Positions 17,733-21,957 of a DNA stretch of 64,000 nt are shown here, in pieces. The notes under the pieces were generated by a model. The model saw nothing but the letters and a program-made list of their open reading frames with translations. It did no database searches and was not told the DNA's origin. The stretch is from Escherichia coli (GTDB lineage: Bacteria; Pseudomonadota; Gammaproteobacteria; Enterobacterales; Enterobacteriaceae): assembly GCF_030384885.1 (NCBI RefSeq), contig NZ_CP128613.1; one strand, written 5' to 3'. Both the position numbers and the translations under genes were made by a program. Each line of letters starts with the position of its first letter. Within the stretch, counting starts at the first letter, position 1.

Positions 17733-17759
17733 CTCCCCCGTAGTGAACGGGGGAGTTTT
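17733..17759. terminator. Intrinsic terminator hairpin after yccJ
   Basis: ctcccccg-tagtgaa-cgggggag followed by TTTTC. Confidence 0.7.
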
Positions 17760-18259
17760 CGATTATTCATTGACCAACGTCTCATGTCCTGTTATTACTG
17801 TGAGATATTCAATCACGTTATCAAATAAAAAAATCGATATCATTGCGGTAAGCTTGTTATTGATTATAAATATGGGTAATAAGCGATATCCAGCATGAAT
17901 TTGATTGTACAGGGTATTTCCTATATAGCCATTGGTTAAATCTTGAAGATAAGATACCTCCGGCTGAAAAATCCATCCCGGCAATGAAGGATGTGATATT
18001 TTCGTAATTCTCTTGCAGAATAAACAACCCTGGATACGCTCTGAATACAAGGAAATTTTCCAATAAATTATTTATTCATCAATACTCCCCGGCGAGGATC
18101 ATCAAAATATCTCATTATCTTTTAAAACTGCCCAGCCCGTTATAACGGACGTTATCTGGCGCACGCTGAAGTGGGCATGATACTCACTTTCATTAAAATG
18201 CTCGACATGATTTGCTAATCGCTTAGCTAGATAATTGACGTTCAGTCTGTGCCAAATTT

Positions 18260-18619
18260 TTAGCGAAAAATAGCAAATTTAAGCCGGGAATTTATCAAAG
18301 CATCCTCATTTACTTCACCATGAACAATAAAGTCACGCATAAACTGCAGGTGTTTAATTAATAAAATCCATTCACTTTCAGTAAGATAGTTTTTCCCACG
18401 CAGATTATAATACAGAGATTTGATTAATGGGATCTTCTGCTTATGGCGCTTTGACCGCGCTGAGCACAATATTTGTTCTATCAGGCCAAGCGTCCCTTTC
18501 TGACGCAACCAGCACCGGAGTTCAGACTGCGCGCTAATGCCGCGAGCCACCGACAAATGTATTTGGGTAAGCAATGCGTATAAACCTAATAAAAACGCGT
18601 CGTGATAATACCGCTTCAT
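18260..18619 (-). CDS. Hypothetical basic protein, 119 aa, second gene of the inserted cassette
   Basis: ORF with GAGGTG RBS a few nt before the ATG, 12 bp after the upstream ORF stop; K+R-rich (net charge about +10); no family recognised. Confidence 0.55.
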   Translation of the reverse strand: MKRYYHDAFLLGLYALLTQIHLSVARGISAQSELRCWLRQKGTLGLIEQILCSARSKRHKQKIPLIKSLYYNLRGKNYLTESEWILLIKHLQFMRDFIVHGEVNEDALINSRLKFAIFR

Positions 18620-18631
18620 TACCCACCTCTG

Positions 18632-18970
18632 TTATCGTAATTTTTTAAACAAATAATCATATAAAATTTCGGCAATGAATTCTGCATGTTCACGTCGCAC
18701 AATGACATTCATAACGTAATATTGCGCAGCAATTTCATTGATAAAATGTTCAGGCAGTATGAATACGCGTGCATAAGCCGAGTATATTTCCAGTATTTCA
18801 TTTGAGATGTTTTCAAGATCAACGCAATAATTTGTCACATCATAAAAAAGATTAGCGTATTTTTTATTAATTATGCTAAGGCATATAAATGGGGCATTTA
18901 ATTTTTCACACAATTGCCAGTGCGTTCTTTCATTTTCTCCCTTCCATGTATACTTCATTTTGTCAGCCAT
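18632..18970 (-). CDS. Hypothetical protein, first gene of the inserted cassette (112 aa from ATG 18970; 108 aa from ATG 18958; 122 aa from GTG 19000)
   Basis: ORF in roughly 30-35% GC DNA; start codon ambiguous; no family recognised. Confidence 0.5.
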   Translation of the reverse strand: MADKMKYTWKGENERTHWQLCEKLNAPFICLSIINKKYANLFYDVTNYCVDLENISNEILEIYSAYARVFILPEHFINEIAAQYYVMNVIVRREHAEFIAEILYDYLFKKLR

Positions 18971-19105
18971 CCTTTGATTTACGCGTCTGAAGTTTACCAC
19001 TGTGTCTGGGGTAAACCATGCGTTCTATGGTAAAAATTATACGAGATGTGGCGCTGCGTAATATTCTGCTCCCTCAATATATTTCTGGTGAATATGTTCC
19101 AGGTT

Positions 19106-19138
19106 AATTGGGAAGATCTGCATGTGATCTTCCCAATT
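19106..19138. repeat. Perfect 13 bp inverted repeat with 7 nt loop
   Basis: aattgggaagatc-tgcatgt-gatcttcccaatt, between agp and the cassette. Confidence 0.6.
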
Positions 19139-19167
19139 TTATGACTACAAAATGTCAATAGCCGGGT

Positions 19168-20409
19168 TTATTTCACCGCTTCATTCAACACGCTATCAAA
19201 CTTATCCATTGGGCAGAAACCATCAGCGTCTATCGGGCAGCCGGTTAATTCCAGCGTCACGCGCTGAGCCGGAGCCTGCAACGTTAACGCATCAGCATTA
19301 CGCAACTGTTCCGCACTCTGGTACACATATTCAATTTTCATCAAATCGCGATTAGCTTTGCTGTTATGCCAACGCTGGAAAACGATTTTGCCGCCAATCG
19401 GCGTGCGTTCGTTCTGGTCATGCAACTGATACGGTTTGAAATCCAGTGCCGTTAACAGAGAGGCAATGTTTGAGTCGTGCCCCACCAGCACCGTGATTTT
19501 CGGTGCACTGGCGCGATCTGTCACCAGCGCTTTGTCGATATAACTGACCAGTGGTTTCGCAACATTGCGCGCCACTTCCGGTGAGGTAAACAGGCTATCC
19601 TGGTAACCGTTTTTCAGCTTCGACAACACTTTCCACTGTTGGTCAGATTTGATTTCTCCCCACGCCACCTGATCCATCGGGAAACCTTCGTAGTATTGCA
19701 AAGTAAACGCATCTACCAGCGAGTTGCCGACTTTCAGCGGCCCGGAAACGCCCGGTTCTTGTTGATACTTCGCGCTAAAGGTGTTTTTGCCATCTACAAG
19801 CGAACACTGTTGCTTCTCTTTACAGGCAGGAGAATCTTTATAGTTAACGATTTTTTCCAGTAGCTTGTAGCTGTCGGTAAGCTGGAGTTTGCCGAGCTCT
19901 TTCTCCATTGCCGCCACCGCCTGTTCACTGAATGCGGCGGAATCATCGGTGATCACCGGGTTAAAGGTTGGGTCCATGGTGCCCATTTTTTCCTGGTGGT
20001 GGACTGGAATGTCACACCCAGGGAATGCGCCAGTAATAAAGAACTGCGCGGTTGCGACGGTACGTTGCAGGCTGTTGGCATAGGCATAAACGGTGTCCGG
20101 CGGCGGGCATTCCCCCGAATTCACCATCCCCTGCTCTGCCAGCCACTCACGCATATAGTGGCCCATATACACTTCCAGCACACCGCCTTTGGTGGTGAGC
20201 TGCCCACCGGGGACGTCCCATTCTGGCCATTTATTCGGTGTGGATTGTTCCAGCACACTGCCATTGTTCGCCAGCGGCGCACGTAAGTTATGGCGGCTCA
20301 TTATGAGCACTTGCTGCAACTGATAGCCTTCCGGTACGGTTTGTGCCTGAGCATTTGAAGCGAGTAAAACTATCCCTGCCACAGCTGCGGCGATTAGCGT
20401 TTTGTTCAT
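19168..20409 (-). CDS. agp: Periplasmic glucose-1-phosphatase Agp
   Basis: 413 aa from [10 protein letters not shown]; histidine acid phosphatase motif RHNLRAP. Confidence 0.95.
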
Positions 20410-20703
20410 TCCTGGCACCTCTTTTGTTATCAATCACCAAAGAGTGTGACAGAAATATGACATTTTTCCGGGAACAGGTTCGCAAAATGGCTTGTTGAGT
20501 GCCTGTTTTTCTATATTTGTCATTAAAAAAAGGCAAGATTTGACGCAACCTATGCATGATTAGCCCCTGCCTCGTGTACGCCGTTGATGATTTCACCATG
20601 GGCTAGACAGAATATCACCGACGTTATCGATACAGGGGCAATATTTACTAGTAAAAAGAGAATGTGAGACTAATAAAAACTATTTTAGCACATGTCTTTA
20701 TCA

Positions 20704-21957
20704 TTAGATGGCATAACGATTTAAATAGTCCAGTTGCGCTTTCATTTCCTTATGGTTTAACTGGTATGACTGAGCAAAAAGTTCAGTAGGGAGGTAAACG
20801 TCATAATGATTGCCAGTATTTATTAAATAACCATACTCAAGATCTTCATCCGTTGAAAAGGATTCACTTCCCAAGGAGATTGATCCCACATTACAGGCAA
20901 CAATAAACAATGAACAAATGCTATCTGAAAGCACAGCAAGGAAATTCTTCACCGCTTTAACCTTTTCCGGAGAGTCGGTATTTAAAACAAGCGAACCCTT
21001 GTTATCATTAAATATAAACTCGGGTAAATGCAATATGCATCTTTCGTCATTCAAGCAACTACCAATGAATTCTTTTTTAAACTTAATAAAATTCGACGCT
21101 AAAGAATTACCCATATCCTGAATTTGGTTGTCAGAATGCAGATCAACGCCAAATAATGTCTTAATATCTTCCCTGAGATTAAAGAATGCTGCATCAACAA
21201 AAGACTCAATCACTTGTTTATCAACAATTTTAATAAATTCGTCGTATACTTCTTTTTGCGTCTTTTGACTGCCAAGCGCCCATGAATAATCAACGTGTTT
21301 TATAACCAGGATGGCTCTTAACAGACAATATCCATCGCCATCTACAGGCGCGTATTTTAATTTATGTGCTTGATTAACTTCACTCTGAATAAAAGATATA
21401 CCAGACAAATCAATACCAGTAGCTGAATCATATATTCCCGGCGCATTTATCCGTTTTGGCTGGACATTCGTAATTTCATCATCATCAAAGCAATACTCAG
21501 AAAAAACATCATTACACTCATTTAAGATATCAACATATGCTATAAATTTATACCAACAGCTACTTTTAAAGCCTGCAATAGCCTGTGAAAACATACCCGG
21601 CAAGGATATATTAACAAGCTCTCTTTCTTGAAAATATTGTATAGTATAGGTAATGCCTCCTGAATCCCCTGAATAAGTGTTTGTATCATGAGTACGTAAT
21701 GTTTTCATAAATGAAGATAAATCATTATCATTTTGCATTTCCTCTAATTCTGTTTCTAGTGATTCACACACCAGGCATGAAATATTTTCTTCTTTCCGCA
21801 TGATTTCATTGTACAACCGCATAAAACACTCTAGTTTTTGTTCAAAAAGCGTGATTGAACATTTTTGATTTTCTTCGCGCCTGGTTTTTATATCGGCCCA
21901 GGCTGTTTTCAAATAATTATTAGCACTGCAACTTACTCCATGTATATTACTACCCAT
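20704..21957 (-). CDS. yccE: Uncharacterized protein YccE
   Basis: 417 aa ORF in AT-rich DNA; recalled as YccE. Confidence 0.8.
   Translation of the reverse strand: MGSNIHGVSCSANNYLKTAWADIKTRREENQKCSITLFEQKLECFMRLYNEIMRKEENISCLVCESLETELEEMQNDNDLSSFMKTLRTHDTNTYSGDSGGITYTIQYFQERELVNISLPGMFSQAIAGFKSSCWYKFIAYVDILNECNDVFSEYCFDDDEITNVQPKRINAPGIYDSATGIDLSGISFIQSEVNQAHKLKYAPVDGDGYCLLRAILVIKHVDYSWALGSQKTQKEVYDEFIKIVDKQVIESFVDAAFFNLREDIKTLFGVDLHSDNQIQDMGNSLASNFIKFKKEFIGSCLNDERCILHLPEFIFNDNKGSLVLNTDSPEKVKAVKNFLAVLSDSICSLFIVACNVGSISLGSESFSTDEDLEYGYLINTGNHYDVYLPTELFAQSYQLNHKEMKAQLDYLNRYAI

Follow-up and report, generated by a model that had tools for sequence, protein, structure and literature searches.

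The AT-rich island that separates agp from yccJ in the 64,000-nucleotide stretch of Escherichia coli DNA analysed here (contig NZ_CP128613.1; the whole stretch is called the window) is likely, with a probability of about 0.75, to be a three-gene orphan immunity array against polymorphic (Rhs-type) toxins, carried at a fixed agp-yccJ site in Escherichia. This reading is based on the observed gene anatomy, homology, conserved neighbourhoods, purifying selection and lesions. The native cassette consists of three co-directional genes, named here A, B and C, of which A alone is intact in the window, and the island is partly decayed in this strain. It is a known kind of element and constitutes neither a new mechanism nor a new class of system. 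An earlier note on the same DNA had described two same-strand open reading frames (ORFs) separated by a 12-bp spacer, at 18260-18619 (119 amino acids, aa) and 18632-19000 (122 aa from a GTG start, 108 aa from an ATG), as a two-gene cassette resembling a toxin-antitoxin pair or a minimal defence module, with orphan immunity genes and a small regulator pair as alternatives. Both ORFs are indeed present on the minus strand, and the observation was real but incomplete and partly misread: the third native gene, which is disrupted here, had been missed, and the 119-aa ORF taken as a native product is a frameshifted allele of a 172-aa gene. Of the explanations named in that note, orphan immunity genes are the one to which the neighbourhood evidence points, for A and B and more weakly for C. 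The island and its genes are arranged as follows.

17761..19167, minus strand: AT-rich insert, the putative orphan immunity island, of ~1.4 kb and 37% GC, flanked by the terminator of yccJ and the stop codon of agp
18632..18958, minus strand: gene A, intact, 108 aa, with the start called by PGAP at ATG 18958; predicted orphan immunity protein for the Rhs tip termed tip2
18260..18619, minus strand: gene B, truncated 119-aa allele of 108 native and 11 out-of-frame residues; its family is paired with Rhs tips of the ADP-ribosyltransferase (ART) type
18102..18278, minus strand: C-terminal remnant of gene B, out of frame, with 58 codons that can still be read
17763..18079, minus strand: remnant of gene C, ~100-105 aa when intact; probably a third orphan immunity gene

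The immunity gene of a polymorphic toxin is placed directly downstream of the toxin tip and in the same direction, and homologues of both A and B were found in this position. A word-indexed protein search for A, B and C returned no relatives beyond Escherichia; wider relatives were reached with an exhaustive hidden Markov model (HMM) search for B and with tblastn against plasmids for A and C. The survey of genes flanking the homologues, which the earlier note had recommended, thus showed A- and B-family genes directly after Rhs tips. The relatives of B recovered by the exhaustive profile search (E 5e-34 to 2e-4) come from Superficieibacter, Citrobacter/Salmonella, Enterobacter, Proteus, Xenorhabdus and metagenome or run-assembly clusters, one of which is Kluyvera-like, and a pattern scan of species-representative genomes added Kluyvera alone, otherwise returning the loci already known. 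In Citrobacter werkmanii, VgrG and DUF2169 are followed by a 1,487-aa PAAR-Rhs whose last 4 bp are shared with the B-family gene; in Enterobacter, this gene is located directly after a PAAR-Rhs and before two Imm15 genes. In a Salmonella-labelled assembly (L030) it stands directly behind an Rhs fragment, and the island there contains a TriTu gene as well (an 86-aa TriTu-domain ORF). On a metagenome contig, the B-family gene and the end of an orphan toxin-tip ORF overlap, within an Rhs array. The 4-bp overlap with the Rhs end is found again in 24 E. coli genomes (e.g. CREC-544), and in these loci the spacing between the B-family gene and the Rhs end is a 0-4 bp overlap or a distance within 4 bp. 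In CREC-544, the Rhs has the accession WP_072652862.1 and the B-family protein WP_063117471.1. The Rhs C-terminal tip belongs to the same family at all toxin-linked B loci, which represent four or more lineages (hmmsearch E 1e-59 to 1e-72, and 3e-33 at the most divergent locus). It matches Pfam Tox-ART-HYD1 (independent E-value, i-E, 7.7e-4) and, weakly, TreTu_C and PDB 7zhl/7zhm. The tips are 57% identical, versus 30-36% for the immunity genes. B-family genes free of a toxin occur in Escherichia, Kluyvera, Superficieibacter, Proteus and Xenorhabdus.

Surveys of Salmonella have listed Rhs-Tox-ART-HYD1 candidate effectors followed by downstream putative immunity ORFs with no recognised domain; one such effector is 32% identical to TreTu, and Rhs tips of this kind are regarded as divergent relatives of TreTu (PMC10469887). 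TreTu ADP-ribosylates EF-Tu, and its immunity protein TriTu shuts the active site as a lid (Jurenas et al., 2022, PMC9825190; PDB 7zhl/7zhm). The B-linked tip, being of the Tox-ART-HYD1 type and weakly similar to TreTu, resembles this system, and B would, by analogy, block access to the active site of the ART tip. B differs from TriTu (PF24689), however, in having neither a Pfam TriTu match nor a significant match to a PDB chain, and in being about twice as long as the 86-aa TriTu-domain ORF mentioned above. Two further observations concern the surroundings of B-family genes. In Proteus alimentorum (L024, 786-6483), the B-family gene is the last of seven co-directional small uncharacterised ORFs (one of them DUF6707) beside an integrase fragment, and this run may be a larger orphan-immunity array. 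In E. coli CREC-544 (L042, 6840-7364), the toxin-linked B-family gene is followed by a 174-aa hypothetical gene with a DGRHR motif, which is reminiscent of ParB/sulfiredoxin-type domains.

The homologues of gene A are linked to another tip. The tblastn search against plasmids detected, on a Phytobacter plasmid, a 54% identical homologue that starts 3 bp past an orphan Rhs fragment ending in the DPxGL core motif and a ~95-aa tip, in an orphan array that also holds AHH with Imm43 and a TNT-type tip. The ~95-aa tip, termed tip2, recurs in E. coli JNE120442 at the end of a full 1,531-aa Rhs located downstream of VgrG and a DcrB-related (chaperone-like) gene. The A homologue, 52% identical to A of the window (E 1.7e-38), begins 3 bp after this Rhs and is itself followed by further Rhs, HNH and SMI1/KNR4 orphans. 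The accession of the Rhs is WP_286356113.1 and that of the A homologue WP_083575851.1. Tip2 (~95 aa; RKCSSSRKP...HYMAKFDK.GRMTHVTDYKIKD) is found at 1704-6299 of L043 (E. coli JNE120442) and at 7844-8998 of L035 (the Phytobacter plasmid), and according to nucleotide searches this toxin type is carried by three E. coli genomes. No match to tip2 was found in Pfam, NCBIfam or PDB, and the tip is a candidate for an undescribed type VI secretion system (T6SS) toxin domain.

Gene A is intact in every locus examined. Its 108-aa product is near-neutral (isoelectric point, pI, 5.9), and the alternative start at GTG 19000 would extend it to 122 aa. The frame of A is open for ~22-26 codons 5' of its ATG in all lineages examined (window 18959-19024), and a 54-aa ORF overlaps the spacer between agp and A (window 18994-19158, minus strand); similarity to a toxin tip was found neither in this open upstream frame nor in the spacer ORF. 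The possibility that A is a leftover of the ART tip upstream of B was rejected, as no similarity was seen in any frame, and a sub-threshold DNase_II match of A in the family scans was discarded as noise.

The case for gene C starts from recurrent weak tblastn matches on six Streptomyces plasmids. The alignment of C with this Streptomyces family by hhalign reached a probability of 96.6% (E 6.9e-10, 90 columns). One Streptomyces relative of C is located 12 bp after a polymorphic-toxin HINT-domain protein, which gives one clear case of the immunity position, in a remote relative; another adjoins an SMI1/KNR4 gene, and the remaining contexts were uninformative. C can probably be counted as a third orphan immunity gene, and intact copies of it are carried by strain N3 and by the divergent Escherichia lineages L014-L016. 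In the window, a 2-bp deletion brings a stop after three codons and a further frameshift follows near the 3' end, a state shared with MFDS, and this third pseudogene is unannotated. The other lesions of C are a stop codon (N96), a frameshift (E. fergusonii) and an IS3-family insertion (E. albertii). In E. albertii (L011, 6928-8299; L012, 5643-7014), the IS3-family element is placed between B and yccJ, where gene C stands in other Escherichia.

As the earlier note had said of the two ORFs, the encoded proteins could be matched to no known family. No significant match was obtained for A, B (in its 119- and 172-aa forms) or C against Pfam, NCBIfam, PADLOC and PHROGs, with no family in PADLOC-DB v2 even at E <= 1. 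Sequence and profile searches of PDB also gave nothing significant, and weak matches to thermoglobin and EspA in them were discarded. A clear transmembrane segment was correctly said to be missing, in that neither A nor B has a strongly hydrophobic 19-residue window. The three families are also independent of each other. A six-frame search of all fetched loci found A, B and C together only in the Escherichia island, each occurring elsewhere without the others; in the same loci, the ART tip accompanies only the B family and tip2 only the A family. A or C as paralogues of B could be dismissed (hhalign probability < 1%). No toxin tip was found in any frame of the 64-kb window or in the Escherichia loci. 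The window strain is likewise absent from the 24 E. coli carriers of the ART tip and the three of tip2, as judged by nucleotide searches that would miss very divergent copies.

The exact A and B proteins are present on hundreds of independent contigs, and A and B are real coding genes and no chance ORFs. In pairwise comparisons between Escherichia lineages, the ratio of nonsynonymous to synonymous substitution rates (dN/dS) was 0.09-0.26 for A, 0.12-0.35 for B (comparisons with a synonymous rate, dS, of at least 0.05) and 0.18 for C, with 0.02-0.07 for agp as a reference. Therefore, all three genes have been under purifying selection in the past, which was weaker than that on a housekeeping gene.

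The 119-aa ORF at the position of gene B is the product of a lesion. E. fergusonii, E. albertii and other E. coli encode B homologues of 172-177 aa, and the intact 172-aa form is present in strains N96 and MFDS1022581. The intact 172-aa B of the island has the accession WP_000833427.1. A DNA alignment of the five E. coli carriers showed that a single G has been lost in the window between 18281 and 18280, which causes the frameshift. The remaining part of the gene can still be read out of frame; the remnant translates to ICYFSLKIWHRLNVNYLAKRLANHVEHFNESEYHAHFSVRQITSVITGWAVLKDNEIF, ended by a stop, and matches the B-family profile (E 1.2e-16). Four residues do not vary in the family, E83, R125, E140 and H141; E140 and H141 belong to a VEHF motif, and all of the four except E83 fall in the remnant and are missing from the 119-aa allele. 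An assembly error was ruled out, since the exact truncated protein is found on 261 contigs of independent origin, which makes it the commonest allele in public assemblies; the nearest intact allele is found on 109 contigs. The loss is thus a real, lineage-fixed 1-bp deletion that removes the conserved C-terminal third of the protein, and WP_000833428.1, the 119-aa protein that is widely deposited, results from a frameshift. In strain N3 (L002), an independent 1-bp deletion, 11 bp further on, leads to the same 119-aa length (window 18275-18286). The recurrence of truncation at one spot may reflect selection rather than decay. The other details reported for this ORF were accurate: a GAGGTG ribosome-binding site precedes its ATG, and with 19 K+R against 9 D+E (pI 10.0) it is strongly basic next to its near-neutral upstream neighbour. 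Only A can function in this strain, the conserved C-terminal third of B being lost and C being a pseudogene.

Over the 2 kb that were compared, the window is 100% identical to the chromosome of E. coli strain 2013C-4282. The local gene order is rutEFG, ymdF, wrbA, yccJ, the island, agp, yccE and cbpAM. The AT-rich character of the island noticed earlier is confirmed by its 37% GC compared with 52-53% in the flanks. Its edges carry TTATTCA, at 17763, and TTATTTCA, at 19168, as short direct repeats. Five of 5,426 complete E. coli genomes carry the island, and in almost all other E. coli the site is empty, with yccJ and agp only ~40 bp apart. The same agp-yccJ site is occupied by an A-B(-C) cassette in E. 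fergusonii, E. albertii and divergent Escherichia lineages. An Rfam scan found no RNA family. Two hairpins were noted at the margins of the island.

17733..17755, plus strand: yccJ terminator, a GC-rich hairpin followed by a T-run, kept at the island edge; an equivalent hairpin is present at empty sites
19106..19139, minus strand: perfect hairpin without a T-run, AAATTGGGAAGATC...GATCTTCCCAATT, part of the insert, directly past the agp stop and upstream of gene A

In the proposed mechanism, a neighbouring bacterium injects a toxin domain, and a small cytoplasmic protein specific to that one domain would attach to it and block it. The target of gene A would be tip2, the unannotated ~95-aa Rhs tip; the intact 172-aa B would neutralise the ADP-ribosyltransferase-like tip related to Tox-ART-HYD1/TreTu; and gene C would act on a third toxin. 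We infer this binding and neutralisation, and any protection given at present, from the conserved neighbourhood and from characterised systems (PMC3150448, PMC3967940, PMC9825190). Since no toxin is encoded together with A, B and C, the protection could be directed only against attack from other strains.

The closest parallels are the orphan Rhs/CDI (contact-dependent inhibition) modules and their orphan immunity genes (Poole et al., 2011, PMC3150448; Koskiniemi et al., 2014, PMC3967940). Like them, the island is an AT-rich array of small genes on one strand, with several unrelated immunity-type genes side by side, and the relatives of these genes are located directly past Rhs C-terminal tips, in VgrG-chaperone-Rhs loci as well as in orphan arrays. 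It differs from them in that the Escherichia island retains neither an Rhs core fragment nor a toxin tip nor a mobile-element gene, in that it stands well away from rhs and T6SS loci, at a fixed housekeeping junction common to several Escherichia species, and in that all three of its protein families are unannotated. A second comparison can be made with clusters of acquired immunity genes. The acquired interbacterial defence (AID) systems of Bacteroidales and the immunity arrays of Vibrio are acquired interbacterial defence or poly-immunity clusters. A poly-immunity cluster has also been listed for Stenotrophomonas. The island is similarly toxin-less, contains several immunity-type genes and, by analogy, could protect against T6SS attack by non-kin. 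Unlike such clusters, it is tiny, with three genes, has no integrase or recombinase, is often pseudogenised and is rare in E. coli.

Several results weigh against the interpretation of the island as an immunity array. The toxin linkage of the A family consists of two loci with one toxin type between them. The copy of A in the window shares only 52% of its residues with the toxin-linked E. coli copy, and for B the corresponding identity is only 30%. Immunity is usually highly specific, and because these identities are low, cross-protection by the island copies is doubtful. For C, the case consists of a distant profile match plus, in essence, a single informative neighbourhood. Neither structure model was informative: that of A reached a predicted local distance difference test (pLDDT) score of 51, and that of B is a generic helical bundle. 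B is also basic (pI 9.5), which is atypical of many immunity proteins; the toxin-linked Citrobacter homologue is likewise basic (pI 8.9). No sigma-70-like promoter was called between the hairpin at 19106..19139 and gene A. Decay is frequent, with two independent truncations of B and at least four different lesions of C, and, together with the absence of the island from 99.9% of complete E. coli genomes, it suggests little present selective value in E. coli. These last points are shared by the view that the island is a functionless relic, all that is left of an ancestral rhs locus or of an acquired island in the course of its erosion and deletion from Escherichia, in which the genes have the same origin as in the array reading but A is simply the last ORF not yet hit and the island gives no protection today. 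The scarcity of the island, the two independent 1-bp deletions in B and the breakage of C by 2-bp deletion, stop, frameshift and IS3 insertion across lineages all agree with it. The short direct repeats at the ends of the insert fit deletion, and the uncalled promoter upstream of A points the same way. AT-rich DNA of this kind is typically silenced by H-NS, which also counts in favour of a relic. Nevertheless, dN/dS values of 0.1-0.3 for all three genes between species-level lineages indicate long-term purifying selection, A is intact wherever it was examined, and intact B alleles survive on more than 100 contigs, so that a pure relic is considered unlikely.

The interpretations that treat A and B as functional partners are much less probable. 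Small, tightly spaced, same-strand ORFs of unlike charge in an AT-rich island do resemble a type II toxin-antitoxin pair or a minimal two-gene defence module, and Rhs toxin-immunity pairs can themselves act like toxin-antitoxin modules (PMC7043789). However, no toxin, antitoxin or defence model in Pfam, NCBIfam or PADLOC is matched and no recognised toxin or antitoxin domain is present. The pairing is kept in one genus only: the A and B families were never neighbours outside Escherichia, and beside Rhs genes each is found in the immunity position, not that of the toxin. Moreover, the basic partner is truncated, and the commonest allele keeps A and a truncated B, a state that does not sit easily with an addictive pair unless the toxin were B. 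A toxin-antitoxin or defence module, the preferred reading of the earlier note, is thus very improbable. A regulator pair, in which A would be the partner of B and B a small PapB-like regulator that binds DNA, is given slightly less credence still. B is all-helical and basic, and the sole basis for this proposal in the searches is a partial match of residues 89-136 to Pfam PapB (PF03333; i-E 0.075, 13.5 bits). This match is below significance, is absent from the PDB profile searches and has no supporting structural match; furthermore, the conserved neighbours of the family are Rhs toxins, not fimbrial or regulated operons.

The island may have been ancestral to Escherichia and lost by deletion between its short repeats, or it may have spread through recombination. 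Between the E. fergusonii and E. coli copies, dS is 0.015-0.04 for B and 0.08-0.18 for A, and among the agp alleles (window 19168-20433) of the strains with the island dS reaches 0.34 (window versus N3), when the window is compared with loci L002, L003, L004 and L014. The low dS for B, the higher dS for A and the divergence of the agp alleles give the agp-yccJ region a mosaic appearance and suggest recombination or introgression at the junction of agp and the island. The 3' end of agp beside the island is visibly mosaic in the alignment. The neighbour of agp on its other side, yccE (window 20704-21957, minus strand), is strongly AT-rich, with 35% GC. Its score of 708 bits, against the curated NCBIfam YccE cut-off of 812, marks it as a divergent allele. 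No match to yccE was found among PDB sequences. It contains the motif PVDGDGYCLLRAIL, which is similar to the catalytic-cysteine motif of OTU-like cysteine proteases.

Summarizing, the agp-yccJ island may, as a tentative and still doubtful extension of the immunity-array reading, be an ancestral toxin-less poly-immunity locus of Escherichia that cross-protects against Rhs toxins of other Enterobacteriaceae. If so, it would be a small enterobacterial counterpart of the acquired interbacterial defence clusters. If the array reading is true, three unannotated immunity families are represented, and gene A points to an Rhs toxin domain of ~95 aa that is still undescribed; this E. coli tip, new and domain-less, is thereby flagged together with its putative immunity gene. 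The B family would be tied to the ART-type Rhs effectors catalogued in Salmonella with unnamed immunity ORFs, and three families of "hypothetical proteins" that carry no annotation would gain a testable role. Orphan immunity genes shape survival in contact-dependent warfare in the gut.

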